In this document: positions 4,800 through 60,433 of the stretch, piece after piece
Position numbering within the stretch: the first letter of the stretch is position 1
Layout: each line of letters starts with the position of its first letter
IMG/VR virus record: IMGVR_UViG_3300005573_000004
Location: 1 to 64,000 of that record
Origin: a virus
DNA: 64,000 bases
Reading direction: 5' to 3' (one strand)
Notes under the pieces: model-generated
Seen by the model: the letters and a program-made list of their open reading frames with translations, nothing else
Databases searched by the model: none
What the model was told of the DNA's origin: nothing
Position numbers and translations under genes: made by a program

Positions 4800-5314
4800 C
4801 TCTCTGCTCCATATTTTAATAATAATCTTACTATATTATATTTTCTTCTACGCTCAGCCCAATCTAATGCTGTTTCCCATCTATCATTCATAGCATTAAC
4901 ATCTGCTCCTGCTTTTAATAATAATTTTACTGTTCCAATATTTCCATAATCAGCAGCTTTCATAAGAGCAGTGTTATTAAAATGATCTCTAGCATTTACA
5001 TCTGCTCCTGCTTCTAATAATAATTTTACAATTTTAGTATATCCTTCTGTGCAAGCTACTATAAGAGGAGTCCACCCATCATAATCTTTGCAATTAACAT
5101 CAGCTCCGACATCTAATAAGAATTTAACTACTCCATAATGTCCATTAAGGCAAGCTTCCAAAAGAGCTGTCCACCCTTTTGAATCTTTATTATTAATAGA
5201 TTCCATTAAATTAAATTGTTTATATTCAGGATATAATTTTTCTAAAGTTACTAACCTAGCAAATACACTAGCTCTCTTATTTTTTAGAAACCTCTTTAAT
5301 TTTAAAGCTTCCAT
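4796..5314 (-). CDS. ankyrin-repeat protein (~4 repeats)
   Basis: Ankyrin consensus; shared N-terminal module. Confidence 0.93.
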   Translation of the reverse strand: MEALKLKRFLKNKRASVFARLVTLEKLYPEYKQFNLMESINNKDSKGWTALLEACLNGHYGVVKFLLDVGADVNCKDYDGWTPLIVACTEGYTKIVKLLLEAGADVNARDHFNNTALMKAADYGNIGTVKLLLKAGADVNAMNDRWETALDWAERRRKYNIVRLLLKYGAER

Positions 5315-5316
5315 TT

Positions 5317-6261
5317 TTAACCCTCCTTTTCACTGATATAACCTTCTATTGCTTCATCCATCTCATAAGTAAAATTTGCACGATTAACTTTCTTTGCTTT
5401 TATTTTTATAACTTTCTTAGTTAAGGTATTTGAAATAACCTTGTTAATTTTGTCTTCAAACTTCTCTAACTCTATGCTAAAATCTAACTTCGAAAATTTT
5501 ATAGTAACTCCATTTCCACCATTTTCATTATTCCCACCATTTATTTTCTTAAAGCTTATTTCAAATTCAAAATCAATAGTTAAATCTAAATAACTATCAA
5601 AGGACTCTAGCTCCTCGTGAGTTAAACCAAAATCTTTTAATACTTCCTTAGTGCAAGGCATAGTAATAATTGCTTGACATTTATTTTCTGAGCCAACCCC
5701 AAATCCTTTATCACCTATAAATAAATCTACTTCTGATAACTTTTCTAACTTCTCCAATTTATTTTGAAGTTCCTTGACAGATCTTATCATAGCAAAATTA
5801 ATCATAGTTTTAGATGCTCTAGCAAACCGCTTAGCATTTCCAAAATATATTACTTTAGCTGATTTAAGGTATTGGGATAAAGCATCTCTTCTAGCTTTTA
5901 TTTTACTTGCTAGATTTGTTTTAAATATATTATCTATAAATTTAATTTTGGTTCTAATTGTTTCAAGCACTCTTATATTAGTTTCTTGTTCTAATAAAGG
6001 TTTTACTTGGTCAGGAGCATTCAATTCAGCCCAGTATAACAATATTGCGAACAATTCCGGCAACCTCATATAATATCCTAAATCAGAATCTTCTTTCGGT
6101 ATTGTATCCTTAATACTCTTATACAACAATACGACATCAGTATCTTTATTACACGCAGCACAGATATATGGAGCTAAGTCTTGTATCCTAATTCTAGATT
6201 CTACTGTCTGTAAAACTTTATCTAACCTATCCAAACCAAACAAAATAGTTGAAGTATGCAT
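5317..6261 (-). CDS. hypothetical protein, paralog family A
   Basis: N-terminal xxSTI...DTDxxLL...PxxxxxxLEQ pattern shared with neighbours; RBS. Confidence 0.6.
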   Translation of the reverse strand: MHTSTILFGLDRLDKVLQTVESRIRIQDLAPYICAACNKDTDVVLLYKSIKDTIPKEDSDLGYYMRLPELFAILLYWAELNAPDQVKPLLEQETNIRVLETIRTKIKFIDNIFKTNLASKIKARRDALSQYLKSAKVIYFGNAKRFARASKTMINFAMIRSVKELQNKLEKLEKLSEVDLFIGDKGFGVGSENKCQAIITMPCTKEVLKDFGLTHEELESFDSYLDLTIDFEFEISFKKINGGNNENGGNGVTIKFSKLDFSIELEKFEDKINKVISNTLTKKVIKIKAKKVNRANFTYEMDEAIEGYISEKEG

Positions 6262-8517: not shown

Positions 8518-9648
8518 TTAATTAGATTTTGGAAAGAAGTTTTTTATTTCTTGGAATATTTTAGATTCACTTGCAGTTTCTATTATATCACCATCTATAG
8601 TTTCATTGTGTATTGGAATAACTTTTACTTTCAACGCTTTTAAAGCTTTAACTACATCATTAGTTGCATCTTTAAAGTAATTGTTTATTTTATTTATCAT
8701 AGCCTTTCTTGTTTTTATTACCTCTTCTGAAGGTTTCGCATCCTCAAATAGATCTATCTTTTCATTAAAGAAATAATTAAGTTTATATAGATCCCTCCCT
8801 TTTTTAGAAACAAATTTTATACTATTATCTAACACATCTTTAAATACTTTTCCATCAGCTTGAAATCTTACTTGAAATGTTTTTTGAGCACTACTTAAAT
8901 TGCTTATTGCATATCTTATATTTTTAGGCAAGCTTTTAAATCCAGGCATACTTTTTAAATTAAGAACATCCGCACCAAGACGAAAAATTATCTTTATTGG
9001 TTCAGTTCTACCAAGATAAACTGGAGATACAATTGTTTTAATACTACTTAGAAGCTTCTTATAATTCTCTTTAGTCACCGTGATATCATCAGTTATATCA
9101 ATAATTAGATCCTCTGTTAAATATAATCCTTCACATTCATGCTCTATATAATCAGATATTCTACTTGCTAAAGAGCTATACTCTTTATTAATAAATACTA
9201 AACCAGTTTGTAATTTCATCCATTCTTTTAAACCATTTATATAGACATCTAATATCTCTTGTATTATTGGTTTAATTTCTTTTTGCACTACATTAAGAGA
9301 GTATTCATGTAGTTTCATTGTAGATTTACTATGCTTCATTCCCAAATCTTTTAGGAAAGAATCTATAGCATCAAAATCTACAACATCATATAAAAAGGCT
9401 TTAGCTTTTTCAGGATAATGTAATAACATATATTTAAGCACTGCTAAATAAATATCACCAATATCATATCCTCTTTTAGTATGTTCCATTTTATATAGTT
9501 CCCTAACCAATAAATCAATATCAGTATTAGGACCTATAAGCATTAATATGTCTTCTGGCTCTAATTTATTATATGCTTGCATAGTTTTTAATTGTTTATC
9601 CTGTGCTTCAAGAATACTTAAAATAGTAGAAGCATTTAATTCTGACAT
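8518..9648 (-). CDS. hypothetical protein, paralog family A
   Basis: LNASTIL...NTDIDLL...HYPEKAKAFL. Confidence 0.6.
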   Translation of the reverse strand: MSELNASTILSILEAQDKQLKTMQAYNKLEPEDILMLIGPNTDIDLLVRELYKMEHTKRGYDIGDIYLAVLKYMLLHYPEKAKAFLYDVVDFDAIDSFLKDLGMKHSKSTMKLHEYSLNVVQKEIKPIIQEILDVYINGLKEWMKLQTGLVFINKEYSSLASRISDYIEHECEGLYLTEDLIIDITDDITVTKENYKKLLSSIKTIVSPVYLGRTEPIKIIFRLGADVLNLKSMPGFKSLPKNIRYAISNLSSAQKTFQVRFQADGKVFKDVLDNSIKFVSKKGRDLYKLNYFFNEKIDLFEDAKPSEEVIKTRKAMINKINNYFKDATNDVVKALKALKVKVIPIHNETIDGDIIETASESKIFQEIKNFFPKSN

Positions 9649-9705
9649 AGTTATTACCTCCTTTTAGGTTTTAGGCGAGCGGAGTAAACCGCCCGCCTTT
9701 ATTCT

Positions 9706-12385: not shown

Positions 12386-13744
12386 TTACCTTTGTTCTGG
12401 ATCTATTAGAATATTTAAATATGGACGAGATGCTCCTTTAAAATTCACTGTATTATGCGTAGTAAATACTATCACATTACTACGCCTTGGACCATATTCT
12501 AACTCAGGGATTTCGCCATCAGTAAGCAATATAAAATTTAATTTTTCACTACCTCTTTTATTTTTCTCAAACTCTTCCCAACGTTTCATTATTGGGTTTA
12601 AATCTGTTCCACCCAATCCAGGAACTTTATTTGGTATTGGATCGCCTTTCTTAACTATATTCTGAATTTGAGTATCACAATATACTACTTCTTCAAATTC
12701 AGGTAATCCCATTATATAGCCAAGAAAGGATTCAATATAATCATCACACGAACCAGAAACATCTATCCCAGCATATACTCTAAATTTTTGATTTCTCTTT
12801 CTTGGAATAAATGTTTGTCTTAATCTACCAGTAGTATCACGTAGTCTGATTCTACGAGATGGTCTACTGAAATCATACTTTTCTTTATACAACATCACCT
12901 CAAGCACCTGATTAAACGGGAAATCTTTTCTTACAATTTCCATTAACTCCCTAACAAAATTTCCTGCTATAGAACCATACTCATTTGACTTTGCTGCCTT
13001 TATCATATTGTCTATGGTTTCTTTTATATCCCCGTTAACATCATCAGGATGAGGTTGACCATCATGATTATCCAACCTCATATTATCAAGATCTTCAAGA
13101 CTTATTTTACCGGATTTAGAACAACTGGAATTACTGGAATCCTTAGAATTATTGTTACTATTGTTACCATTGTTACCATTGTTACTATTGTTACTATTCT
13201 TCTTTAATATTTCATAGATTTCATCTGAAGTGACTTCGTCTACTGATCTATTTTCAAGAAAGTTTGCAGGAAGAATTTTCTCTTCCATTAAACTTTCAAT
13301 AGTAATACCAATTTTCTTCCCTGAATCATCAGTAGGTTGGTTAAGTGCTCCTTTATAATACTTATTTAGCAAAGAGTTTATTACGGCATCCTCTGCGATG
13401 TTTAAAGCTTCCGGATTATCATACTTTTCTACCCTAATTAAATGCGATAATAATAAATGTGCTGCTTCATGAGCTAAGATATACATTTGTTCAGAAATTG
13501 TGTGTTGTAATAACTGTGTTACGTTCACTTGCATATGTATATTCTTAGTCTTCTTATTCATTACCATCGCAGCATAGAAATGATCGTCTTTACTTTTAGG
13601 AATATATTCTTCAATTCGCAACATCAAGAATAATTCCATGAAGAATCTTAAATCTGAATTGAGTGCGAAGTGCTCAAATGGAAGGACGTTTCTAATTGGA
13701 TCAGTGCTGATATTTCTATTTCTTAATTCATCTCTTAAACTCAT
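12386..13744 (-). CDS. DUF2201-type putative metallopeptidase-vWA protein
   Basis: HEAAH (HExxH), N.A.D.VIN, Asn-rich linker, MIDAS DVSGS, GGTDL and LLTDG; adjacent to a MoxR ATPase. Confidence 0.85.
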   Translation of the reverse strand: MSLRDELRNRNISTDPIRNVLPFEHFALNSDLRFFMELFLMLRIEEYIPKSKDDHFYAAMVMNKKTKNIHMQVNVTQLLQHTISEQMYILAHEAAHLLLSHLIRVEKYDNPEALNIAEDAVINSLLNKYYKGALNQPTDDSGKKIGITIESLMEEKILPANFLENRSVDEVTSDEIYEILKKNSNNSNNGNNGNNSNNNSKDSSNSSCSKSGKISLEDLDNMRLDNHDGQPHPDDVNGDIKETIDNMIKAAKSNEYGSIAGNFVRELMEIVRKDFPFNQVLEVMLYKEKYDFSRPSRRIRLRDTTGRLRQTFIPRKRNQKFRVYAGIDVSGSCDDYIESFLGYIMGLPEFEEVVYCDTQIQNIVKKGDPIPNKVPGLGGTDLNPIMKRWEEFEKNKRGSEKLNFILLTDGEIPELEYGPRRSNVIVFTTHNTVNFKGASRPYLNILIDPEQR

Positions 13745-13811
13745 AATACACCTCCTTAGGTTTTATAAGGGGGCAGGATTCCCTGCCCCCTTAAGATTTT
13801 AGTTGAAAATT

Positions 13812-14960
13812 CTATTTGCTTTTACTCTTATTTTTATTCTTAGCTCCCGCTTCTTTAAGCAATGAATCATAATAACTACTGAATTTTTCACCTTTACAAG
13901 TCAAGGATTCAAATAATATCACATCTTTTTCTACAATACCACGTCCAAAACTCGTAATAATCTCTGCTACCGGCTCAGTTTCTACTAATTTATCTAAAAA
14001 TGGCTGTATTTTCTTCAGTAGTTTTTCTCTTATTTCTTTGTTTGGTTCAAAATCTACAGGAAATAAGATAGCAAGCACATCATTCAATGCTGATTTACGT
14101 TTCATAGGATTATTCTTAGCCGCTTCATATCTACTCCAAGCAGTTTTATCCAATTCCAACAATTTTTCCGCATTTATCACGGAATCTTTAATGAATTCGG
14201 CAAACAAACTTACTGTGCTTGGAGATAAGAAGCCTGATGCATACATTAAGATCTTATCTTGATCTTCATCTTTATCGGGATCTAATCCCATCTGTTTTAC
14301 AATATTGTCTAACTGAGACCAGCCCCTTGGATTGCTCCACGGTTCAAATGGAGCATCTTTTTTCGGGCGGACATAGAACACTTTGCTTTCATACGCCTTA
14401 ATAAAATCTGCGATGGCTTTCACTGGCTTTTGGAATTCAATCCACGCATCAATCTCTGGTCTTCTTACGGCAAAAATCATACCTCTTCCACCAGTTAACG
14501 CAGTGCTAAACGCCTTCGCAAATGTTCCATCTTCACCGCCCATATTCCCAAGCAGAACGAATAACGTTCCCTTGGGAAGTTTAACTCCATCTATTTCTTT
14601 CTGCCAAATCACATCTAAAATCGCACCCTGAACATCTTCTGCGGCCAATGTTGCTTCATCACATATTACAACTGCCTTTCCATTTGCTTCTATTACTTCT
14701 TTCCAGAAGTAAGGAAGCTTCCATTGCGTATAAGTCCCACTGACATCTGGAATACCTTTGATGTCATAGGGTTCAATCCTTCCCAAGGAAATTTTTACTG
14801 CTTTTCTCCCTTCTTCGGCAACCACCTGCTCAATGCCGAAGGATTTTCCAATACCAGGGTCACCAAAGAACATCACTGTTGGTGGGTCAGGAAGTTTCAT
14901 TAACCCCCTGACAAGTTCTTTCATCTCTGTGACTGTAACTACTTTTAAATTGGATGCCAT
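13812..14960 (-). CDS. MoxR-like AAA+ ATPase
   Basis: Walker A GDPGIGKS, Walker B VICDE, NPRGW motif. Confidence 0.85.
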   Translation of the reverse strand: MASNLKVVTVTEMKELVRGLMKLPDPPTVMFFGDPGIGKSFGIEQVVAEEGRKAVKISLGRIEPYDIKGIPDVSGTYTQWKLPYFWKEVIEANGKAVVICDEATLAAEDVQGAILDVIWQKEIDGVKLPKGTLFVLLGNMGGEDGTFAKAFSTALTGGRGMIFAVRRPEIDAWIEFQKPVKAIADFIKAYESKVFYVRPKKDAPFEPWSNPRGWSQLDNIVKQMGLDPDKDEDQDKILMYASGFLSPSTVSLFAEFIKDSVINAEKLLELDKTAWSRYEAAKNNPMKRKSALNDVLAILFPVDFEPNKEIREKLLKKIQPFLDKLVETEPVAEIITSFGRGIVEKDVILFESLTCKGEKFSSYYDSLLKEAGAKNKNKSKSK

Positions 14961-14995
14961 AAGACACCTCCTTCAGATTAATTAGATTAATACTG

Positions 14996-15031
14996 TGTCA
15001 GCGTATTATTAATTCCCCGCTGACAAGGGAA
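14996..15031 (-). promoter_or_regulatory. H-type pseudoknot element (fully covaried variant) upstream of the MoxR gene
   Basis: TTCCC T TGTCAGCG GGGAA TTAATAATA CGCTGACA. Confidence 0.7.
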
Positions 15032-15032
15032 G

Positions 15033-15061
15033 ATTTTAATATAATTTTACTGCAATGTCAA
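15033..15061 (-). promoter_or_regulatory. sigma70-type promoter TTGACA-N17-TAAAAT
   Basis: Near-consensus hexamers with 17-bp spacer. Confidence 0.65.
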
Positions 15062-15064
15062 GCT

Positions 15065-15736
15065 TTATTTTGTCTCACCTCCCTTCTCATTATGTATCTT
15101 CATATACTCTAACAGCTTTTCATACATAAATTCACCAGGCTTTATATCTGCTCCTGCCTTTACCAGCTCTAACATTACTGAAAAAGCATTCATTCTACTG
15201 GCATATGCTAGAGCGGTTTGTCCTAATTTATTCTTTATATTAACATCGGCTCCAGCAGATATTAGAGCTTTGACTATATCAACTCTATCATCAAAATTAT
15301 AGGCAGCTTTCATAAGAGCAGTGTCTCCGTCATTATCTTGAGCATTTATATCTGCTCCTGCCTTTATTAAAAGATTAACTATTGTATCACTATTATACAT
15401 ACAAGCAAACATAAGTGGACTTGTTCCAAAATAATCTTTGGCATTTATATCAGCTCCTGCTTCTATGAGAAGCTCTGCAACCTTAGTATGCCAATGTTCA
15501 CAAGTAATCATAAGAGCTGTTCTATTATATTCATTTTTTGCATCAATATCAATTTCTAAATCAAATTCTTCATAAATATCTGGATATAATTTTTTTAATG
15601 CCACAATACGAGAGAATAGACTGGCATTTTTGTCTAATAATAATTCTAATAATTCATTCCGATTATACCGATTATCCATAATAACACCCCTTTCAATAAA
15701 ATTATCTGAAAACTTTATATACTGTTTCTTTTCCAA
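15065..15736 (-). CDS. ankyrin-repeat protein (~5 repeats; likely start at MDNRYN)
   Basis: Ankyrin consensus; shared N-terminal module. Confidence 0.92.
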   Translation of the reverse strand: MEKKQYIKFSDNFIERGVIMDNRYNRNELLELLLDKNASLFSRIVALKKLYPDIYEEFDLEIDIDAKNEYNRTALMITCEHWHTKVAELLIEAGADINAKDYFGTSPLMFACMYNSDTIVNLLIKAGADINAQDNDGDTALMKAAYNFDDRVDIVKALISAGADVNIKNKLGQTALAYASRMNAFSVMLELVKAGADIKPGEFMYEKLLEYMKIHNEKGGETK

Positions 15737-15944
15737 ACAATTTAGAGAGCATATAAACCCAGCCGTGTTCCCTTATTGCACTCTCTAAACAATGTTTGGT
15801 TTTAATCTGAATAATCTTTCCGCCAGGTGTTAAGAACTTTGCTTGTTCTATTTCATCTGGCATTACTTTTTTCCAATAGATATCAAACGGAGCTGGGTAT
15901 CCGTATGATTCTAATTGTTTTTGTATTAAGTCCTTAACGTTCAT
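15702..15944 (-). CDS. hypothetical protein
   Basis: Packed ORF, overlapping start/stop with upstream gene. Confidence 0.55.
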   Translation of the reverse strand: MNVKDLIQKQLESYGYPAPFDIYWKKVMPDEIEQAKFLTPGGKIIQIKTKHCLESAIREHGWVYMLSKLFGKETVYKVFR

Positions 15945-16132
15945 AATGTGCCTCCATCCTTCATGGTCTTTTTTATTTGCCGCATTACATCTCTGATAGC
16001 TGCTTTATAAGCATACTCCAGAGTTAATTTCTTAACAAACTTTGGGCGAACATATTTTTGCCCAAAGAATTTCATATGTTTCTTCATCCTTTCTTCTGTA
16101 GTGATTACCGGAGCATTAAAAATGTCTTTCAT
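15941..16132 (-). CDS. hypothetical protein
   Basis: AGGAGGTG RBS. Confidence 0.55.
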   Translation of the reverse strand: MKDIFNAPVITTEERMKKHMKFFGQKYVRPKFVKKLTLEYAYKAAIRDVMRQIKKTMKDGGTL

Positions 16133-16150
16133 AAAGCACCTCCTATAGGA

Positions 16151-16564
16151 TTAGTATTCACGGAAACGAACGAATTTAAATTCGCTCGTTTTAATTCCGT
16201 CTTTTTCCACAGCAATTCTTGCTGTGGTCGCTGCAACAGGAACTTTTCCCTGTGCGAGCAATTCATTTACAAGCATATGCGTCAAGGTATGTTCACCTTG
16301 AATCATAATATGCTTGTAATTATATTTATTTAATTTCTTTAATACTTTTTGAGCTAACTTTGTTACATCTTCCTTAGATGCCTCAGGTGGCACCATAGGA
16401 AAATGAATATCAACTATCTGGGATGCTACGTGAGGAGCATATCCCTCAGTAGCAATGCTGTATAATGCGTCCCTTTGTTCTTGGGACCATTTGTTGCTCG
16501 GGTGATTGCTTAAATTTATCGCAACCACCTTTAAATTGTGTTCTAATGTTAATTCTAATTCCAT
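16151..16564 (-). CDS. Csx20-like CRISPR-associated ring-nuclease homolog (candidate anti-type-III protein)
   Basis: INLSNHPS.KWS.EQ, FP.VPPEAS, IQGE.TLT..LV, PV.ATT.R, K.SEF.FVRFREY match my recollection of the Csx15/16/20 group. Confidence 0.72.
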   Translation of the reverse strand: MELELTLEHNLKVVAINLSNHPSNKWSQEQRDALYSIATEGYAPHVASQIVDIHFPMVPPEASKEDVTKLAQKVLKKLNKYNYKHIMIQGEHTLTHMLVNELLAQGKVPVAATTARIAVEKDGIKTSEFKFVRFREY

Positions 16565-16629
16565 ATTACACCTCCTTTAGTTGCCTATGTATTATTTCCC
16601 CCATAGGCAGGGGAGAATTAAGAAATAGT

Positions 16630-17106
16630 TTATTTCAATCTTACGTCAGGAAGGATCTTAACTGTGCTGTCCATCTTGACAACACAATTAATCCCCCTCT
16701 TCTGCAACGCCGGTACTAAGAGGAACATTAGCACCGGAGTGCAGTCTATGAAGGCGATTTTATCCTCGCCTTCAGATATGTTTTGTAAATATATATTATC
16801 CATTCTTTTCAGGATATCATCAACAATATCCTGAAAGAAACTATAGTAATCCCCATTGGGATCACTATAGATAACTTCACTTTCCGTCTTTTCAGACGGA
16901 AAGTAATTATACTTTGTGAAGTTAATAATCTCTACGTCATCCCATTTGGGAGTGGCGTAGAACGTAGTTGCATTATCTATGATTATCACTCCTTCCTTTC
17001 CCGTGGTTGGATCTGCTTTATCCCCCATAAAGCAGTCCAAAATTTTTTCTTTCAGCTCTGGACTCCAGCGTTCTGCTGGAGTATTTGAAAAATTAAAAAG
17101 CTTCAT
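16630..17106 (-). CDS. divergent Csx15/Csx20-like paralog, copy 1
   Basis: LFNFSNTPAERWSPE aligns to INLSNHPSNKWSQE; C-terminal AFID...LVPALQKRGI.CV aligns to MIQG...LVNELLAQGKVPV. Confidence 0.5.
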   Translation of the reverse strand: MKLFNFSNTPAERWSPELKEKILDCFMGDKADPTTGKEGVIIIDNATTFYATPKWDDVEIINFTKYNYFPSEKTESEVIYSDPNGDYYSFFQDIVDDILKRMDNIYLQNISEGEDKIAFIDCTPVLMFLLVPALQKRGINCVVKMDSTVKILPDVRLK

Positions 17107-17161
17107 ATTACACCTCCTTTAGTTGCCTATGTATTATTTCCCCCATAGGCAGGGGAGAATT

Positions 17162-17464
17162 TTATTTATTATTTAATATTAATTTCTTGACAAACATATT
17201 AAGGGCATTTACTAAATACCCTTTTAAATGCATAATATAATATGTAGCGTATTCACCTCCTTCCGATCCGAAATCAACTTTCTTTACGAAGTAAAATGGA
17301 TCCTTCAGCTGTGCTGAAGAATCCTTTACTTCTACTACTGAATATGCAGGCCCTGGAATATATATCTCACAGGGACCTGTAAATCCTAACGCTTTGGAGC
17401 CTATAATATGCTCCAAAGATTTTTGTAACTCTTCTTTGCTTGAAAATTCTTTTAATTCTATCAT
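17162..17464 (-). CDS. small early protein, family B
   Basis: Near-identical to 18568..18870; RBS and pseudoknot leader. Confidence 0.7.
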   Translation of the reverse strand: MIELKEFSSKEELQKSLEHIIGSKALGFTGPCEIYIPGPAYSVVEVKDSSAQLKDPFYFVKKVDFGSEGGEYATYYIMHLKGYLVNALNMFVKKLILNNK

Positions 17465-17523
17465 ATTACACCTCCTTTAGTTGCCTATGTATTCTTATTT
17501 CCCCCATAGGCAGGGGAGAATTT

Positions 17524-17970
17524 TTATTCCCCAAATATTTTCTTCATCAAATCAGCCACCAACTTTTTGGTGGCTTCTTCATCGTGCTTAACCCACTTGA
17601 GTGAGTTAAGCCATTTTTTGTGGAGAGCTACTTTCTTCTCCACATGTTTCTTATTCTTGTCCCCATACTCTCCTTCGTGTATGGGGACTACAGAATAAAC
17701 ATCATTCGGTAAATCTTTTATATTGATATTTTCCGGAAGATGTCCGTCATCTACGACACCTCCGGAAAATGTTTTAATCTTACAATATTGTAATACAGAG
17801 AGATTACTCTTCTCTGTATCGTATACTTCCCCTTCTTCTGTGAAGAGGGGAAACTCTACCACATCGCCTGGAGCCCAGGCGATTACTACTTCTTCCCCCT
17901 GAATATATAACTCGTGAAGAAGTTTTTGAACTTCTTCAGAGTCATAATTGTTATTTTTTAATTTTATCAT
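17524..17970 (-). CDS. hypothetical acidic early protein
   Basis: RBS and pseudoknot leader. Confidence 0.7.
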   Translation of the reverse strand: MIKLKNNNYDSEEVQKLLHELYIQGEEVVIAWAPGDVVEFPLFTEEGEVYDTEKSNLSVLQYCKIKTFSGGVVDDGHLPENINIKDLPNDVYSVVPIHEGEYGDKNKKHVEKKVALHKKWLNSLKWVKHDEEATKKLVADLMKKIFGE

Positions 17971-18035
17971 AAGACACCTCCTACAAATTTGCCTATGTAT
18001 TATATTCCCCCATAGGCAGGGGAGAATTAAGAATA

Positions 18036-18512
18036 TTATTTTAACCTTACTTCTGGTAAAACTTTAAATGTGTTGTCAAAACGGACAACACATTTAATTT
18101 CTCTTCTCTGCAACGCCGGTACTAAGAAGAACATCAGTACCGGAGTGCAGTCTATGAAGGCGATTTTATCCTCGCCTTCAGATATGTTTTGTAAATATAT
18201 ATTATCCATTCTTTTCAGGATATCATCAACAATATCCTGAAAGAAACTATAGTAATCCCCATTGGGATCACTATAGATAACTTCACTTTCCGTCTTTTCA
18301 GACGGAAAGTAATTATACTTTGTGAAGTTAATAATCTCTACGTCATCCCATTTGGGAGTGGCGTAGAACGTAGTTGCATTATCTATGATTATCACTCCTT
18401 CCTTTCCCGTGGTTGGATCTGCTTTATCCCCCATAAAGCAGTCCAAAATTTTTTCTTTCAGCTCTGGACTCCAGCGTTCTGCTGGAGTATTTGAAAAATT
18501 AAAAAGCTTCAT
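18036..18512 (-). CDS. divergent Csx15/Csx20-like paralog, copy 2
   Basis: Identical to 16630..17106 except in the last ~30 aa. Confidence 0.5.
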   Translation of the reverse strand: MKLFNFSNTPAERWSPELKEKILDCFMGDKADPTTGKEGVIIIDNATTFYATPKWDDVEIINFTKYNYFPSEKTESEVIYSDPNGDYYSFFQDIVDDILKRMDNIYLQNISEGEDKIAFIDCTPVLMFFLVPALQRREIKCVVRFDNTFKVLPEVRLK

Positions 18513-18567
18513 ATTACACCTCCTTTAGTTGCCTATGTATTATTTCCCCCATAGGCAGGGGAGAATT

Positions 18568-18870
18568 TTATTTATTATTTAATATTAATTTCTTGACAAA
18601 CATATTAAGGGCATTTACTAAATACCCTTTTAAATGCATAATATAATATGTAGCGTATTCACCTCCTTCCGATCCGAAATCAACTTTCTTTACGAAGTAA
18701 AATGGATCCTTCAGCTGTGCTGAAGAATCCTTTACTTCTACTACTGAATATGCAGGCCCTGGAATATATATCTCACAGGGACCTGTAAATCCTAACGCTT
18801 TGGAGCCTATAATATGCTCCAAAGATTTTTGTAACTCTTCAACTGTGTTAAATTCTTTTAATTCTATCAT
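18568..18870 (-). CDS. small early protein, family B
   Basis: Duplicate of 17162..17464, offset 1406 bp. Confidence 0.7.
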   Translation of the reverse strand: MIELKEFNTVEELQKSLEHIIGSKALGFTGPCEIYIPGPAYSVVEVKDSSAQLKDPFYFVKKVDFGSEGGEYATYYIMHLKGYLVNALNMFVKKLILNNK

Positions 18871-18977
18871 ATTACACCTCCTTTTATAGCCTATGTATTA
18901 TTTCCCCCATAGGCAGGGGAGAATTTTTTTGCCTATAAATATTTTAGCTTCCTATAGGCAGGAAGCTAAACGAATTA

Positions 18978-19262
18978 TTAGAGATTACCCGCTAATAATT
19001 CGTTTAAAAATATCGTATTAGCATACTCTACGTTCCCTTTTACATAGATAATAGAGAACGTAACCTCTTCATAAGAGGCTTTCTTCACTATATAAAATTT
19101 ATGCTTCAATAATAAAGCTTCTTCATTTGCGTATTCTAATGCCCCGGCAATCCCTTGAACATAGATGCTTTCATCTTCCTTTTGAGAGGCGATAGCCTCT
19201 TTTAAGGAAGCTAGCAACTCTGGCATACCTGATACTTCTTTTACTTTAACATCTACATGCAT
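18978..19262 (-). CDS. small early protein, family B
   Basis: EL..SL...I.S, IY..G.A, LK..FY.VKK, I...KG motifs shared with 17162..17464. Confidence 0.65.
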   Translation of the reverse strand: MHVDVKVKEVSGMPELLASLKEAIASQKEDESIYVQGIAGALEYANEEALLLKHKFYIVKKASYEEVTFSIIYVKGNVEYANTIFLNELLAGNL

Positions 19263-19442
19263 ACGATGCCTCCTTTCATAGCCTATGTATTCTTATTTCC
19301 CCCATAGGCAGGGGAAAATTTAAATCCCCTTTAGGCGGGGTCAAAGAACTTTTGGAAGCGGAGAGTCTATGCTCCCCGCTTCCAAATAGCCTACGTATAT
19401 TTTAGCTCCCCCGTAGGCTGGGAGCTTAAGGAACTAATGTTC

Positions 19443-19859
19443 TTATTTTTTGGACATTAGTTCCTTAAGCTTTTTTTCCTCCTGCTCCCGCCTATTGGAG
19501 CGGTTTTTGTCAATTGCCTCTTTTAAAACTGGGAGGCTTGCCTCCCAGTTTATCCCTCCCCAACTATATTCATTAGCTAAGGCCATAATGGTCTTAGCTA
19601 CCTTGTCGGAATCAATACATTCCGACAAATTAGTAAAAATCCTGATATGGGGAACTCTGTTCCCCATATCCTCAAAAATCACCAAGGCGTTCCATGACAC
19701 CTTGGTGATTATCTCTTTCACCTTGGCGGGGGTATCAAGACCCCACCAAGTAAGATTTAAGAATTCCCCGCCTTTGACGAGGAATTCATTTCTTCTGGCA
19801 TATGGGTTTCCTCCCCATACGCCTTCCATTTGGTCTACCAATATAAATTTGGATTCCAT
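19443..19859 (-). CDS. hypothetical early protein
   Basis: RBS and pseudoknot leader. Confidence 0.7.
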   Translation of the reverse strand: MESKFILVDQMEGVWGGNPYARRNEFLVKGGEFLNLTWWGLDTPAKVKEIITKVSWNALVIFEDMGNRVPHIRIFTNLSECIDSDKVAKTIMALANEYSWGGINWEASLPVLKEAIDKNRSNRREQEEKKLKELMSKK

Positions 19860-20081
19860 AACACACCTCCTTTTATAGCCTATGTATTATATTCCCCCAT
19901 AGGCAGGGGAAGATTTTTCTTGCTTGTTGTTTTTTTACAAGGGGAGCAAGAGCCCCTTGCAAGCCTATATTTTAGGGGCTGGCTTGATGCCCCTTTGGGG
20001 GCGAGAATCAGGGACTTCTGCCCCCAAATAGCCTACGTATGTTTTAGCTCCCCGTAGGCGGGGAGCTACAAAATAACAGGG

Positions 20082-20261
20082 TTATTTCTTTATTTCAAAC
20101 CCTGTTATTTTGTATTTCTGAAGCTGGGCAGGAGCATCTGCCCAGCTCCATAATTTACCCGCAAGGGTAACAGATCCACCCCTGTGGGTAAAAACTATCT
20201 GTTGCACAGGCTTCCCTGTAGCCTGTGCCTTTTTAATGATTCTTAAATTATTCTTCGTCAT
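20082..20261 (-). CDS. 59-aa basic protein (not in ORF track), copy 1
   Basis: AAAGGAGGTGA RBS then MTKNNLRIIKKAQATGKPVQQIVFTHRGGSVTLAGKLWSWADAPAQLQKYKITGFEIKK*. Confidence 0.6.
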   Translation of the reverse strand: MTKNNLRIIKKAQATGKPVQQIVFTHRGGSVTLAGKLWSWADAPAQLQKYKITGFEIKK

Positions 20262-20446
20262 CTGTAATCACCTCCTTTCTTTTAATGAATAGTAGGCTCG
20301 GTTGCTCAAGCCGAGCCTACTTAAAACAAATCCCCTTTAGGCGGGGTCAAAAGAGCGTGTAGAGGCAGGGAGCATAAGCTCCCCTGCCTCTAAGAGCCTA
20401 CGTATATTTTGGCTCCCCGTAGGCGGGGAGTATAAATAAGGTCATT

Positions 20447-20764
20447 CTATTTTTTTAGAATGACCTTATTTATTAAGAATTCTATGGCACTATTTAAAAA
20501 TTCCGGCTTTGTAATAACTTCAAAGCCTGAGTCCATTATTTCATCATCCTGGTAGATCCTCTCTACCAGGAAATAATTTATTTTATCAGTCATTATTATT
20601 ATTTTATCTTTTTCCTCAGAGGAGGAAAAAGATAAAATTTTTTCCATACAGTCCTCTATGAGGACTGTATTATGTTCCCACCAACGGTGGGAATCTATCA
20701 GCCCAACCTTTTGGTTGGATAGCAAATCTTTAATGTCGTTTGAAACTTTTACTTTTACATACAT
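20447..20764 (-). CDS. small early protein (distant family B), copy 1
   Basis: Paralog of 21363..21680; RBS and pseudoknot leader. Confidence 0.7.
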   Translation of the reverse strand: MYVKVKVSNDIKDLLSNQKVGLIDSHRWWEHNTVLIEDCMEKILSFSSSEEKDKIIIMTDKINYFLVERIYQDDEIMDSGFEVITKPEFLNSAIEFLINKVILKK

Positions 20765-21004
20765 AATTACCTCCTATAAGTGCCTATGTATTATATTCCC
20801 CCATAGGCAGGGGAAATTTTTCCTACTCTAACCCGGTAGGACGGGCTTGCCTATGTTTTACAAGGAAGGCAAGCTCCTTGCAAGCCTTTTTAGTTTAGGG
20901 GCAGGCTTGTAGCCCCTTTGGGGGCGAGAATCAGGGACTTCTGCCCCCAAATAGCCTACGTATGTTTTAGCTCCCCGTAGGCGGGGAGCTACAAAATAAC
21001 AGGG

Positions 21005-21184
21005 TTATTTCTTTATTTCAAACCCTGTTATTTTGTATTTCTGAAGCTGGGCAGGAGCATCTGCCCAGCTCCATAATTTACCCGCAAGGGTAACAGATCC
21101 ACCCCTGTGGGTAAAAACTATCTGTTGCACAGGCTTCCCTGTAGCCTGTGCCTTTTTAATGATTCTTAAATTATTCTTCGTCAT
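21005..21184 (-). CDS. 59-aa basic protein, copy 2
   Basis: Duplicate of 20082..20261. Confidence 0.6.
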   Translation of the reverse strand: MTKNNLRIIKKAQATGKPVQQIVFTHRGGSVTLAGKLWSWADAPAQLQKYKITGFEIKK

Positions 21185-21362
21185 CTGTAATCACCTCCTT
21201 TCTTTTAATGAATAGTAGGCTCGGTTGCTCAAGCCGAACCTACAAAATCCCTTTTAAGCAGGGTCAAAGAACTTTTAGAAGCGGAGAGTCTATGCTCCCC
21301 GCCTCCAAATAGCCTACGTATGTTTATACTCCCCGTAGGCGGGGAGTATAAATAAGGTCATT

Positions 21363-21680
21363 CTATTTTTTTAGAATGACCTTATTTATTAGGAATTCTA
21401 AGGCACTTTCTAAAAACTCAGGCTTTGTAATAACTTCAAAGCCGGAATCAGTTTCTTCATTATCATCCTGGTAGATCCTCTCTACCAGGAAATAATTTAA
21501 TTTATCAGTCATTATTATTTTATCTTTATCCTCCTCTGAGTAGGAGGATAAAACTCCTCCATCGCAATCTACGTAGTATATTGTATTATGTTCCCACCAA
21601 CGGTTGGAACCTGTCATTCCAACCTTTTGGTTGGATAGCAAATCTTTAATGTCGTTTGAAACTTTTACTTTTACATACAT
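21363..21680 (-). CDS. small early protein (distant family B), copy 2
   Basis: Paralog of 20447..20764. Confidence 0.7.
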   Translation of the reverse strand: MYVKVKVSNDIKDLLSNQKVGMTGSNRWWEHNTIYYVDCDGGVLSSYSEEDKDKIIMTDKLNYFLVERIYQDDNEETDSGFEVITKPEFLESALEFLINKVILKK

Positions 21681-21867
21681 ATTACACCTCCTTTTATAGC
21701 CTATGTATTATATTCCCCCATAGGCAGGGGAGAATTTTTTCTTGCTTTTTGTTTTTACAAGGGGAGCAAGAGCCCCTTGAGAGTCTATATTTTATGGAGC
21801 GGACTCAACGCTCCATTTTTTTTTATCACCTCCTTTCTTTATGCTTCCTTGCAAAAGCAAGGAAGCA

Positions 21868-21980
21868 TTTATTATAATATATAGATAATATATTATATTA
21901 TTATAATATATTATCTATATATTATCTATATATTATATTATTATAATATTATATTATTATAATATTATTATTATTTTAAT
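21868..21980. repeat. almost pure A/T, partly palindromic tract
   Basis: TATTATATTATTATAA-type repeats with only a few G/C. Confidence 0.8.
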
Positions 21981-22052
21981 TCTCATAAGAGAAGAAGAAA
22001 GAGTTGATGATGGCCGTAGAATCCGCTATATATCCCCTTCAAAACCAGGAGA

Positions 22053-22252
22053 ATTTTGGAATTTAGGGTCCCCTGGAACCCAAAATTTTCTATAGGAAAA
22101 ATTTTTGGAATTTAGGGTCCCCTGGAACCCAAAATTTTCTATAGGAAAAATTTTTGGAATTTAGGGTCCCCTTTAACCTAAAAATTTCTATAGGAAAAAT
22201 TTTAGGGTCCCCCTGAACCGAAAATTTTCTATAGGAAAAATTTTTGGAATTT
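22053..22252. repeat. four tandem ~49-bp repeats
   Basis: GGGTCCCC cores at 22066, 22115, 22164, 22205, each followed by AAAA(T/A)TTTCTATAGGAAAAATTTT. Confidence 0.9.
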
Positions 22253-22275
22253 CCGCCCCCATAATTACTCCATAC

Positions 22276-22347
22276 CGTGAATACTGTGAATACTGTGAAT
22301 ACTGTGGATAATGTGTATAATGTGTATAATGTGAATAATGTGAATAA
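22276..22347 (-). promoter_or_regulatory. head-to-tail DnaA-box array
   Basis: TTATCCACA (22303-22311), TTATACACA x2, TTATTCACA x2, plus three degenerate boxes, all abutting at 9-bp period. Confidence 0.75.
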
Positions 22348-22407
22348 GGCAATTAAACTGCCGTATAGATATTTAGAAGGAAGTAGGAAGGAATATATTG
22401 GGTAGAA

Positions 22408-22452
22408 ATAAAAAAGCCGTTAACCAGCCTATTTCACACTGATTAACGGCTT
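22408..22452 (-). terminator. intrinsic terminator
   Basis: AAGCCGTTAA...TTAACGGCTT stem followed by a T tract on the minus strand, after 22480..22761. Confidence 0.7.
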
Positions 22453-22479
22453 ATATTAAGTATATTAGTCTTTGGTAGT

Positions 22480-22761
22480 TCAGTTTTCAAAAATTTTTAT
22501 AAAGGGATAAATTATAAAAGCTATTCCTAAAAATCCTATTATAAAAGAAACAACAAGTCCTAACAATTTTAAAGAAGATTCTAACCCAACTATAAAATTA
22601 TGATAAAAATCACAACACGGTAATGACCAAACGTGCCCACAATTCCAAAATCCTATTACAATACTTCCTAAAATAATTGCAATAGTTAATAAAATTAACC
22701 CTTTCGCTATATACATCATATACATCAATTGATAGATACCAAAATTAATTTTGTTTTTCAT
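22480..22761 (-). CDS. two-TM membrane protein
   Basis: Two long hydrophobic segments. Confidence 0.6.
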   Translation of the reverse strand: MKNKINFGIYQLMYMMYIAKGLILLTIAIILGSIVIGFWNCGHVWSLPCCDFYHNFIVGLESSLKLLGLVVSFIIGFLGIAFIIYPFIKIFEN

Positions 22762-23087
22762 TTTGTACCTTCCTTTCTGTATATTAGCCCTTTTCCATAT
22801 TTTTTGGCAATTTTTATTTCACGTTTCATGCCTTCTGTTATCCCTTTTTCGTTGTTTATATATACCATATCACAAATAGATACTAATTGTCCACAAAAAC
22901 TTAAAATTCTTTCCCTGGTCTTTTCATCCTCTTTTTCTATGAAACTAAAATTTAAATGAGGAATTACAGGTATATAGTTCAAACCTAAATCAAAAATTTC
23001 TTTACCTAATTTCTTGGCTATTTCTATATTCTTTTTTATACCTTTTTTGGTTTTTGCACTATATGGACTACAAATATAAACTAGCAT
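22758..23087 (-). CDS. DUF4406-like / nucleoside 2-deoxyribosyltransferase-fold protein
   Basis: VYICSPYS, P..PHL, CD.V, GM..EI..A motifs. Confidence 0.7.
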   Translation of the reverse strand: MLVYICSPYSAKTKKGIKKNIEIAKKLGKEIFDLGLNYIPVIPHLNFSFIEKEDEKTRERILSFCGQLVSICDMVYINNEKGITEGMKREIKIAKKYGKGLIYRKEGTK

Positions 23088-23088
23088 A

Positions 23089-23472
23089 TTATATCTCCTG
23101 ATTTTTGGGCAAATCCATAGTTCCTCTATTTAGTTCAAGCGTTGTTCTTATTTTTGCTTCTAGTTTGTCACTTAAATAATAAAAAGCTGCCCAGGGGTCT
23201 GTTTCTTCACCACACGTGAAAAGATCAACTGCAGCATAACCGTGCTCCGGCCATGTATGTATAGCAAGATGCGATTCCGCCACAACTACTACTCCACTCA
23301 CTCCGTGCGGACTGAATTTGTGGAATACTACCTGCACAATCGTAGACTTAGACTCCTTCGCCGCCTCTGTCATCGCCTCTTCAATAAATTTTAAATCGTT
23401 CAACTTCTTTTTATTACACCCGTAAAATTCAACTAGTAAATGCTTTCCCAAACTTTTCAATTTAAGGTTCAC
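23089..23472 (-). CDS. speH: S-adenosylmethionine decarboxylase proenzyme
   Basis: [35 protein letters not shown] (E-SH autocleavage site), DLFTCG. Confidence 0.93.
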
Positions 23473-23496
23473 CTCTATTTTTTTAAAATTTTTTAA

Positions 23497-23531
23497 GCCT
23501 ACGTATATTTTTTCTCCCCGTAGGCTGGGAG
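23497..23531 (-). promoter_or_regulatory. type-B pseudoknot element upstream of speH
   Basis: CTCCC A GCCTACG GGGAG AAAAAATATA CGTAGGC. Confidence 0.75.
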
Positions 23532-23627
23532 CAAAAGAAAGGTAGGAGTGAGTAAAACTAGTATATTATTCCTCTGATCCCATTAATGATATCATATACC
23601 ATTTCCTTTTCATCCTCAGTAAGAGGC

Positions 23628-41567: not shown

Positions 41568-42266
41568 TCAATCTAATATTTCTAATTTTTGAACATTATT
41601 TTTAATAGTTTCAGCTAAATCTTGCATTTCTTGCTTTGTATAAGAATGATATTTAGACCATTCTGGATCAAGTGTAGTTATTGGTCTAAACGCTTGCAAA
41701 ACATAAAGTTTTGCCCCAATTATTATAGTGCTAATGTTATAAATATCTACATCAGTATGAAATTCTTTAATTAAGGTTGTACGAAATTGATAATCTATAT
41801 TAGATTGTTTTAATAAAGCAATAGATTCTAAAATTTTTGTAGTATCTATTTTTATACCAGCTGCTTGACTATATTTTTCGTCATTTAAAGGGTCTTGTTT
41901 AATATCCATAGCTATATAATCAACTAAATTACTATTTAATAATTTAAGCAGCATTTCTGGGTTATATCCATTAGTATCTAATTTTATAGATAACCCAAGG
42001 TCTCTAACTTTTTTTAAAAAATCTAAGATATCTTTTTGAATAGTAGGTTCTCCTCCAGAAATTACTAAACCTTCTATTAGTTTAGAACGAGATTTTAATA
42101 TTGATAAGATTTGGTCTTCTGACGAAATTTCAGTTTTATAATTTACCAATTCATAGTTCTGACAGAACGGACATTTAAAATTACATCCAGGAGTAAATAC
42201 GACAATTGATATCTTATCTGGATAATCTATGGAGGAACTTGGTATAATCCCACCAAACTGCATCAT
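41568..42266 (-). CDS. nrdG: anaerobic RNR activating radical-SAM protein
   Basis: GCNFKCPFCQN, ISGGEPT, KLDTNG; adjacent to nrdD. Confidence 0.92.
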   Translation of the reverse strand: MMQFGGIIPSSSIDYPDKISIVVFTPGCNFKCPFCQNYELVNYKTEISSEDQILSILKSRSKLIEGLVISGGEPTIQKDILDFLKKVRDLGLSIKLDTNGYNPEMLLKLLNSNLVDYIAMDIKQDPLNDEKYSQAAGIKIDTTKILESIALLKQSNIDYQFRTTLIKEFHTDVDIYNISTIIIGAKLYVLQAFRPITTLDPEWSKYHSYTKQEMQDLAETIKNNVQKLEILD

Positions 42267-59509: not shown

Positions 59510-60433
59510 ATGGCATCGTGGGATGATCCAAGAGCTGTACAAGCAGCACATCAAGGTCCGAGAGAACAGTTGTTTTTAAGTCTCAAAGAAGATTTACGCG
59601 TTAGGGTTATTGGTGCACCAGAATTTTTTGAAAGACATTGGGTAAGTAGTCGTACAGGCAAATATGTCGGTATTAGATGTCCAGGTGCTTCACACTGCCC
59701 TGTTTGTGCGATGGGAGACAAACCAAGACTGAGAGCTATTTTGCCAGTTTTAGACAGAAAGACTAACAAGGTAAGATTATTAGACGCTCCTCAAATCATC
59801 ATTGGCTATTTGAAAGCATTAAAAGATGGAGAATGGGGAGACTTGTCTGGATATGACGTTGTTATTCAACGTGTCCAAGTTGGTAAGAAAACTGACTATC
59901 AGGTAACGCCACAACCATCAAGAACTCCGTTAACGGAAGCAGATAAAGCTGAGATTAATAGATTTTTTGAAACTGTAGACTATAAGAAATATGCACAGCC
60001 ACATACGATTGAAGAAGCGTTAGCACTTTTAAATGGTCAGCAATTACCAAGTAAGAGACCAGAAACGATTTCATATACCGGAGAACCAGCACGTATGCAG
60101 ACAGCATATACTAATGCATATGTACCTCAGGCACCAGCACCAGCGTATATTCCTCCAAATTATTCGCAGTCTCAGACTGTTGCTACTCCAATGGCACCGC
60201 AGATGCAGGCACCTGCACCACAGACTGGGGCTCCAATTTCATCAGGTACGCCAAATATACCAAATACACAGCCAGGAACGAACGCACAGCCGTCGTATGT
60301 TCCACCAGCACCAGCTAATACGCCTAATACAGTTACAGATCAATTAATTCAACAATTTTTGCCACAGGGGTATCCGTCATCACCTCCGATACCTCCGTCT
60401 CTTTCATCTCCTCCCAATTCCGGCTTGAGGTGA
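59510..60433 (+). CDS. single-stranded DNA-binding protein (gp32-like, Zn-binding) with Pro-rich tail
   Basis: RHW...CPG...CPVC, GYDV.I.R....T.Y.V.P; located between polA and resolvase. Confidence 0.65.
   Translation: MASWDDPRAVQAAHQGPREQLFLSLKEDLRVRVIGAPEFFERHWVSSRTGKYVGIRCPGASHCPVCAMGDKPRLRAILPVLDRKTNKVRLLDAPQIIIGYLKALKDGEWGDLSGYDVVIQRVQVGKKTDYQVTPQPSRTPLTEADKAEINRFFETVDYKKYAQPHTIEEALALLNGQQLPSKRPETISYTGEPARMQTAYTNAYVPQAPAPAYIPPNYSQSQTVATPMAPQMQAPAPQTGAPISSGTPNIPNTQPGTNAQPSYVPPAPANTPNTVTDQLIQQFLPQGYPSSPPIPPSLSSPPNSGLR

Follow-up and report, generated by a model that had tools for sequence, protein, structure and literature searches.

A covarying family of predicted pseudoknots at the gene boundaries of a hot-spring phage, with a possible role as mRNA boundary modules

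Introduction

Why should the spacers between the small genes of a phage be filled, time and again, with elements that share one folding geometry and no stem sequence? The question is raised by the virus record IMGVR_UViG_3300005573_000004 of IMG/VR, a complete genome of 149,961 bp that carries terminal repeats in direct orientation and of which we analyzed the first 64 kb (64,000 nucleotides, called the window below). The window has a GC content of about 31%, and DNA of this phage was present only in hot-spring and sediment metagenome runs. The minus strand is the coding strand for all genes from position 1 to about 52 kb, and thus also for every gene within 13812-23472. This last region includes a run of about 20 small genes without Pfam or PHROG family, and the elements in question are interleaved inverted repeats in the spacers of this run. 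A preliminary description had listed about 25 of them as H-type pseudoknots whose stems are preserved while their sequence changes, and had suggested that no such family is catalogued. Judged from the sequences analyzed below, the family is real and unusually rich, and its members are covarying pseudoknot modules that lie at gene boundaries in a hyperplastic phage region.

Results

Census of the interleaved repeats

On the minus strand of 14996-23531, we found 24 solid cases of interleaved inverted repeats with the potential to form H-type pseudoknots and one doubtful 25th copy with a loop L3 of 3 nt, in good agreement with the earlier count. Ten copies belong to type A, six to type B (one of them B-like) and one each to types C and D, as anticipated, including the extended stem S1 of type B (AGCUCCC/GGGAGCU, with stem S2 GCCUACG/CGUAGGC) and the distinct stem pairs of types C and D. 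The remaining six copies, of the four types E, F, G and H, were found in the same spacers in addition to those listed previously. The type A core UCCCC-U-GCCUAUG-GGGGA occurs ten times without a mismatch, with zero occurrences expected, and is followed each time by 7-10 A/U-rich nucleotides, the sequence CAUAGGC, and a Shine-Dalgarno (SD) sequence with start codon, so that its assignment to ten small genes was borne out.

Unit sizes are 33-42 nt, with 5-9 bp in S1, 0-2 nt in loop L1, 5-8 bp in S2 and 4-13 nt in L3. Simultaneous formation of both stems would be sterically ordinary for an H-type knot with such loop lengths, and the H-type geometry proposed earlier for the copies with a 1-nt L1 is compatible with them. 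The stems, GC-rich despite the low GC content of the genome, fall into at least eight classes that have a single geometry and no stem sequence in common. A-richness aside, no nucleotides are conserved across the classes. L3 consists of 67% A and 23% U, compared to 35% A in the sense-strand background.

A strict scan of the sense strand of 14901-23600 (5 Watson-Crick bp in S1, at least 6 bp in S2) gave 23 matches, whereas 100 dinucleotide shuffles yielded 0.24 on average and 2 at most. In the remaining genome, an interleaved-repeat scan of either strand returned only two other GC-containing matches, and a sequence-only nhmmer profile found zero copies in the genome outside 14996-23534. All copies have the orientation of transcription and a fixed position relative to SD sequences and stop codons, and neighboring knots within one spacer are never of the same class. 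Outside the cluster, gene 8518-9648 is preceded by a weaker interleaved repeat (9667-9697, minus strand; S1 of 6 bp with G·U pairs, S2 of 5 bp, L3 without A-richness) that stops 1 nt short of its SD region, possibly by chance.

At gathering thresholds, the only Rfam 15 match in the window was a tRNA, and nothing was found on the knots at E-values up to 5. The searched literature did not describe a repeated pseudoknot family in phage spacers either, which agrees with the suggestion of an uncatalogued family.

Both stems are maintained by compensatory changes

Nine stretches from eight contigs (L024-L032), each with several copies, were obtained in one metagenome scan, and L034, L119 and L121 via protein look-ups. 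These relatives share about 72-97% nucleotide identity with the window and extend the data set to about 60 distinct copies of at least eight classes, with G·U intermediates. In 40 distinct copies of types A, B, C and D, 99% of 480 cells were paired and 10 of 12 pairs were compensatory; this level of pairing was reached by none of 500 shuffles, and slid controls gave 26-60%. For 11 copies of types E and H, the corresponding values were 97% paired and 6 of 12 pairs compensatory.

Single cases illustrate the same behavior. The ortholog of the ATPase-leader knot in a 74%-identical relative (L031:5923-5957) has kept S1, while all 8 bp of S2 were replaced. SD-adjacent knots in L029 and L121 occur in a version with GCCAGCG/CGCUGGC, type E combines one S2 with four different S1 helices, and the S2 of L030:1956 contains a U·G pair intermediate between the U-A pair of type A and the C-G pair of type B. 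A collection of copies with sequence-only nhmmer, run as a check, added three copies, two of which (L032:343-304 and L028:216-254) keep the pairing through G·U.

At least eight G·U pairs were counted versus two A·C mismatches, the latter at helix ends. This bias favors a single-stranded molecule of the sense strand, most simply mRNA. As the preliminary description had argued, both stems are kept by compensatory changes, to which G·U changes can be added. The fold therefore very likely exists and acts in the sense strand, and we consider the pseudoknot structure itself highly probable.

Knots are placed at fixed distances from genes

Knots lie 5' of 11 genes (types A and D) and 3' of six genes, in the latter case 10-17 nt past the stop codon. 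The distance from the end of a type A knot to the SD, which is strong, is 7-10 nt; type D is an exception with 25 nt. In 33 of 37 distinct SD-adjacent contexts, the knot stops 7-10 nt short of the SD and 16-21 nt short of the start codon, with differing linkers. In the short spacers (61-71 nt), type A begins 5-15 nt past the upstream stop codon.

For type B (5 of 6 copies) and type C, the knot begins 10-17 nt past a stop codon. Each of the five stop-following B copies is preceded by a perfect hairpin of about 14-15 bp. The 5' arm of this hairpin encodes the final residues of the gene upstream, and its 3' arm starts right at the stop codon or just past it; the non-coding arm seems to have become complementary to the coding one in the course of evolution. 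Long spacers have the order stop hairpin, B, long imperfect hairpin, small conserved hairpin module or stack of E and F/G, A, SD. In the longer spacers, types E-H are stacked, two or three knots of differing classes at a time. Nearly every knot is flanked by A-rich linkers that are predicted to be single-stranded.

Two side observations concern these spacers. Three unrelated genes with stop hairpins (five copies) end in two lysine codons followed by the stop, and both lysines are encoded by the A-run of the loop. At 21804-21840 on the minus strand, a strong SD is followed by a mini-ORF (open reading frame) of three codons (AUG GAG CGU UGA), whose start lies in the S1 of type H; it is conserved in L024 and might encode a leader peptide or be what remains of a deleted cassette.

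Table 1. Positions of knots and associated elements in the window (S1 and S2, stems; L3, loop)
Feature	Position	Strand	Remarks
Type D knot	14996..15031	-	S1 UUCCC/GGGAA, S2 UGUCAGCG/CGCUGACA; leader of MoxR-like ATPase gene 13812-14960
Sigma-70-like promoter match TTGACA-17-TAAAAT	15033..15061	-	11/12 matches; conserved in L025, L034
Type A knot	16582..16614	-	ends 7 nt before SD of gene 16151-16564
Type A knot	17124..17156	-	before gene 16630-17106
Type A knot	17482..17517	-	before gene 17162-17464
Type A knot	17990..18023	-	before gene 17524-17970
Type A knot	18530..18562	-	before gene 18036-18512
Type A knot	18889..18920	-	before gene 18568-18870
Type C knot	18930..18967	-	S1 AGCUUCC/GGAAGCU, S2 GCCUAUA/UAUAGGC; starts 10 nt past stop of gene 18978-19262
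Type A knot	19281..19316	-	before gene 18978-19262
Promoter-like match TTGACC-16-TAAATT	19317-19344	-	ends directly at S1 of knot 19281..19316
Long imperfect hairpin, weak U-rich tail	19351..19386	-	between B and A knots
Sister long hairpins	21274-21309, 20361-20391, 19995-20028, ~20918-20951	-	
Type B knot	19388..19426	-	after stop of gene 19443-19859
Type A knot	19878..19911	-	before gene 19443-19859; last in E-G-A stack
Type G knot	19918..19959	-	S1 CAAGGGG/CCCCUUG, S2 UCUUGCU/AGCAAGA, L3 13 nt; class also in relatives
Type E knot	19960..19994	-	S1 AGGGGC/GCCCCU, S2 CAAGCC/GGCUUG
Type B knot	20031..20068	-	after stop of gene 20082-20261
Type B knot	20396..20430	-	after stop of gene 20447-20764
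Type A knot	20781..20815	-	before gene 20447-20764
Doubtful 25th copy	20821..20847	-	S1 AGCCCG/CGGGUU, S2 UCCUAC/GUAGGA; plain hairpin possible; conserved in L024, L032, L121
Type F knot	20846..20883	-	S1 CAAGG/CCUUG (extendable), S2 GCUUGCC/GGCAAGC
Type E knot	20881..20917	-	
Type B knot	20954..20991	-	after stop of gene 21005-21184
Type B knot	21312..21347	-	after stop of gene 21363-21680
Type A knot	21699..21731	-	before gene 21363-21680; last in H-G-A stack
Type G knot	21740..21779	-	
Type H knot	21781..21816	-	S1 AUGGAGCG/CGCUCCAU, S2 GAGUC/GACUC; S1 holds mini-ORF AUG
B-like knot	23496..23531	-	21 nt upstream of SD-like GAGG(UG), AdoMet decarboxylase gene 23089-23472
Perfect hairpin (~14-15 bp) spanning gene end and stop codon	20434..20466	-	type B knot next
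Sister stop-codon hairpins	19428-19467, 20071-20105, 20994-21028, 21350-21382	-	each followed by type B knot

Translational operators and processing sites as rival explanations

Placement close to the SD is reminiscent of the gene 32 operator of phages T4, T2 and RB69; for the T2 knot, a nuclear magnetic resonance structure was reportedly determined by Holland et al. in 1999. That operator is likewise an H-type knot in a phage leader; its stems are coaxial, its L1 is very short, and an A/U-rich linker and the ribosome-binding site lie downstream of it (PMC3014915). In the knots described here both stems covary. However, the gene 32 operator is a single copy on the mRNA of the single-stranded DNA-binding protein (SSB) gene itself, about 40-70 nt upstream, and is bound by gp32, the gene's own product, which represses translation, whereas the phage has 24 copies of at least eight classes at unrelated orphan genes, 7-10 nt from the SD and in some cases after stop codons. 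An SSB-like protein is encoded at 59510-60433 on the plus strand (PHROG SSB families and a sub-threshold gp32 Pfam match), next to genes for a DNA polymerase, a RuvC-like resolvase and a UvsX-like recombinase, but there is no knot in its leader.

The main rival explanation to the one that we prefer below is nevertheless that of translational operators, in which a RegA-like or gp32-like phage protein or a host protein would bind the SD-adjacent knots, block the 30S subunit and shut down the whole cluster together. The existence of the SSB-like protein would suit this explanation, as would the mode of action of T4 gp32, which makes such use of a pseudoknot with a long AU-rich tract behind it that covers the ribosome-binding site (PMC3014915). 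The end of the knot, 16-21 nt before the start codon, would be inside the contact region of the 30S subunit. Sequence is conserved in S1 and the A-rich L3 of the SD-adjacent types, with S2 free to covary, and the stems of type A are identical in the distant, 74%-identical relative L031. A single protein would not suffice, however, for types B, C, E, F, G and H, which have unrelated stems and are not SD-adjacent, and no RNA-binding regulator was identified. All in all, we judge operators to be unlikely.

Alternatively, the knots might be processing signals, with an endonuclease (for instance an enzyme of the phage, or RNase P, Z, Y or III of the host) cutting the A/U-rich linkers to release monocistronic units. 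The idea has parallels in tRNA punctuation, in the RNase III sites of T7 and in ribozymes at phage gene boundaries; hammerhead ribozymes are said to occur in phage-associated contexts. It would be in line with the A-rich single-stranded linkers, with the long imperfect hairpins between types B and A and with the stacking of S1 on S2, which would create a coaxial helix of 12-14 bp, the length of a tRNA acceptor arm. In spite of this, nothing but A-richness is conserved across the classes, and searches of the phage revealed neither an RNase III gene nor a ToxN-like one (the control of the ToxN search was also silent), so that processing appears improbable. A self-cleaving ribozyme was considered separately and is unlikely, as no nucleotides are conserved across classes.

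Distribution among relatives and cassette shuffling

The type D knot is present in relatives with at least 74% identity of the ATPase and absent at 54-56% (L035-L037). In relatives with 53% and 45% ATPase identity, about 21 kb around the ATPase gene contained no knots in either case, and small genes were tightly packed. A search of IMG/VR for the ATPase identified the relatives L123 and L124 (the latter being the contig of L033) with an alignment and none with a single protein; no knots were found in L123 and L033. Megablast of the region against GenBank phages gave no match, and a pattern scan of IMG/VR for A- and B-type cores gave 23 single, chance-like matches and no array. According to these searches, the knots are lineage-specific.

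Gene order varies among the relatives. Two tandem duplications in the window (16630-17464 versus 18036-18870, and 20031-20764 versus 20954-21680) are both bounded by modules, and where homology blocks shared by the window and L024-L032 end internally, a knot is mostly 0-50 nt away. In L031, the leader with the type A knot is preceded by a canonical terminator, then a promoter-like module that includes a small hairpin, and a further hairpin.

Promoter-like matches and possible functions at the DNA level

The preliminary description had cautioned that a -10 hexamer ends just before S1 of the knot at 14996. This is indeed the case, as TTGACA-17-TAAAAT ends 1 nt before S1, and there is a second case at 19316. 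In a consensus scan, promoter-like matches adjoin only two copies, those at 15031 and 19316, the spacers of 61-71 nt have no -35/-10 pair, and L031 has a promoter-like module upstream of the knot; such scans are weak evidence. The reading of L3 and S1 as promoter parts was rejected, because there is no common -35 and the length of L3 varies. For a reading as T7-type promoters, which CUAU-GGGGGA resembles, no phage-type RNA polymerase was found (the control of that search was also silent).

A conserved module consisting of (U)UGACC, a small hairpin CCCYGYYUAAAAGGG and AUU recurs in long spacers at 19317-19350, about 20325-20352 and about 21240-21268, and in L031 at about 660-690 and 1330-1360. 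It can be read as a -35 box whose spacer contains a hairpin. A truncated B copy in L121:3180-3280 is flanked by this module as a direct repeat.

If the modules acted as DNA, as sigma-factor promoters, recombination sites or selfish repeats resembling repetitive extragenic palindromes (REP) or miniature inverted-repeat transposable elements, the RNA fold would be incidental. Recombination sites and promoters require sequence, though, and not two interleaved helices with compensatory changes. An L3 of 4-13 nt breaks the fixed -35/-10 spacing, the classes have no -35-like sequence in common, and neither the G·U bias in the sense strand nor the fixed orientation and position relative to transcription, SD and stop codons would be expected. 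REP elements spread via a Y1 transposase, for which there was no PF01797 match in the complete phage genome (the positive control worked), and a T7-type RNA polymerase was not found, with the silent control already mentioned. We therefore regard functions at the DNA level as very improbable, even though the modules coincide with breakpoints of cassette shuffling, L3 often resembles a -10 hexamer, two copies adjoin promoter-like matches, S1 as a hairpin with a T-run looks like a weak terminator on the antisense strand, and the phage encodes a sigma-70 family protein elsewhere in its genome (134064-134270, minus strand).

Comparison with other structured repeats

The element lacks a defining feature of the gene 32 operator, of PeSL cassettes and of ToxI-type repeats. 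REP and bacterial interspersed mosaic elements (BIME) and the early RNase III sites of T7 are likewise structured and repeated, lie between genes that are transcribed together and determine the stability or processing of mRNA segments; these are simple hairpins, in the case of REP and BIME imperfect palindromes, whereas the knots are interleaved and not palindromic.

Promoter-early stem-loop (PeSL) cassettes of T4-type phages (PMC2839356, PMC4122927) are also repeated intergenic modules with stems of G- and C-runs, located at orphan genes of a hyperplastic region, ending in SD and start codon and marking the breakpoints of indels and swaps among close relatives. The duplications and block ends 0-50 nt from the knots correspond to this pattern. 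In contrast, PeSLs consist of a plain terminator stem-loop and a strong sigma-70 promoter, while the modules of the window have a covarying pseudoknot core of two interleaved helices, mostly show no recognizable promoter in the consensus scan and are not followed by a U-tract in the sense strand. The leader in L031 closely resembles a terminator-promoter cassette with a knot added to its 5' untranslated region.

Exonuclease-resistant RNAs (xrRNAs) of flaviviruses and plant viruses (PMC5760640, PMC8374639) are pseudoknot folds, often in tandem, that are placed to meet a 5'-3' exonuclease. They differ by a ring-like fold built on a three-way junction or special hairpin, and nothing similar is evident in the knots.

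ToxI and phage pseudo-ToxI (PMC3475682) are short pseudoknot units with A-rich single-stranded flanks that can be phage-borne, arranged as an identical head-to-tail array beside a toxin gene. The units of the window are dispersed and diverse. They could in principle be anti-defense decoys, that is, sponges for host RNA-targeting toxins or effectors, considering that type III antitoxins are arrays of pseudoknot repeats (36 nt in ToxI) with known mimicry by a phage (PMC3475682, cited in PMC3997798), and that the phage units have a similar size and A-rich flanks. However, the units of the window do not form a head-to-tail array of identical repeats, their positions are linked to SDs and stop codons, and Rfam gave no ToxI-like match; a match for a ToxN-family toxin gene was also not found in the phage, in the search with the silent control. 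A decoy function is highly improbable, and together with the promoter and transposon-repeat readings it fits poorly.

A CRISPR-repeat mimic was dismissed, with a partial resemblance and no CRISPR direct-repeat model matching the knots. Coremin-like loops (AGAC-N3-AAAC) occur in the window at chance level.

Discussion

A possible role as mRNA boundary modules

Our favored, though tentative, explanation is that the knots are autonomous mRNA boundary modules, which may serve as end-caps and insulators of ribosome-binding sites and also as crossover points. Each unit can fold on its own into a compact GC-rich knot with an A-rich L3, its two stems being kept by evolution, and is found at fixed sites, namely before the SD (types A and D), after the stop codon (B and C) or in stacks (E-H). 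Knots on both sides of a cistron could cap it against exonucleases and heat and could hold the SD unpaired, in a constant context whichever gene lies upstream, so that cassettes would be expressed independently of their neighbors. As repeated modules, they would finally be the sites at which cassettes are duplicated, lost or exchanged between related phages, in part already visible in the duplications and block ends.

A physical role is favored by the combination of one geometry with unrelated sequences, the A-rich L3, the stacks, the presence on both sides of cistrons and the thermophilic setting. An A-rich L3 is a feature of compact triple-helix knots. Each hairpin alone is marginal at 65-75 °C. 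In the minimum free energy structure of type A from ViennaRNA, which considers nested structures only, the pyrimidine-rich 5' arm of S1 pairs with the SD instead, so that knot formation would also free the SD. In addition, a flaviviral xrRNA, a folded viral RNA with a pseudoknot, blocks the bacterial RNase J1 in vitro (PMC5760640).

Several points speak against boundary modules. The S1 sequence hardly varies among the SD-adjacent types (UCCCC/GGGGA-like), even in a relative with neighboring genes of only 72-75% identity, and this constancy and the tight SD spacing suggest recognition by a factor or the ribosome rather than a passive cap. We know of no plain H-type knots that stop exonucleases like the ring-shaped xrRNAs. 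At the two copies with promoter-like matches, some primary transcripts may start inside S1 and would then carry only the 5' S2 hairpin. Relatives with 45-56% ATPase identity have equally dense small genes and no knots, which means that the function is dispensable. Closeness of breakpoints to knots is partly unavoidable, since most spacers hold one. Finally, the copies used for covariation were partly gathered with a finder that requires pairing, and the third copy added by the sequence-only check (L121:3200-3240) is a B type without the 5' arm of S1.

A more specific version of boundary modules would be true mRNA punctuation, where a 5' and a 3' knot on either side of each cistron would halt 5'-3' and 3'-5' exonucleases after endonucleolytic cuts in the A-rich linkers, leaving stable monocistronic mRNAs in a thermophilic host. 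From the sequences compared here, we find this rather doubtful.

Genomic setting

The knot cluster is flanked by an iteron and AT-rich block (21869-22347) and by a pair of genes for a MoxR-like ATPase and a DUF2201 protein (12386-14960). The block, directly upstream of the cluster, consists of an AT-rich palindromic part (21869-21978), a 49-bp iteron that is present 4.2 times (22054-22252) and a 9-bp repeat with about 8 units (22277-22347), and is probably an origin or control region. An analogous iteron block is found in the 45%-identical relative L033 (about 5200-5600).

Other minus-strand genes code for SbcCD-like proteins, a DnaB-like helicase, an SNF2 helicase, a PD-(D/E)XK nuclease, a chaperonin, a patatin-like protein, TnpB, many ankyrin proteins and the anaerobic ribonucleotide reductase NrdD (42263-45262, minus strand), which is interrupted by an intein. 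The presence of NrdD implies an anaerobic host. The AdoMet decarboxylase (SpeH-like; 23089-23472, minus strand) has its best genome match, with 78%, in a metagenome-assembled genome of Candidatus Goldbacteria, a weak hint to the host or donor lineage.

Among the small genes, 16151-16564 (minus strand) encodes a 137-amino-acid protein, for which a Pfam search gave no significant match, while its homologs carry a precomputed Pfam match to PF27247 (MJ1673). The duplicated cassette protein of 158 amino acids (16630-17106 and 18036-18512) has only four homologous clusters outside its own genome among 5.8 billion, all on contigs of a few kb, and the two examined were close relatives. Going by these clusters, it is an extreme orphan family.

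Implications

To our knowledge, structured RNAs that block exonucleases have so far come from eukaryotic viruses. True punctuation would thus provide their first bacteriophage counterpart, built from interchangeable knots of unrelated sequence. Gene 32 has been described as possibly the only case of viral autoregulation by such a pseudoknot (PMC3014915). A role as boundary modules would extend pseudoknot control of phage translation and exonuclease-blocking RNAs, both ideas with few examples. It would also mean that the phage offers a natural toolkit of small, thermostable and mutually orthogonal RNA parts for insulating ribosome-binding sites and capping message ends, which synthetic biology makes by hand. 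Whatever the function, the covariation set is suitable for defining a new RNA family, and repeated regulatory modules appear to drive cassette shuffling in a lineage that is unrelated to T4.

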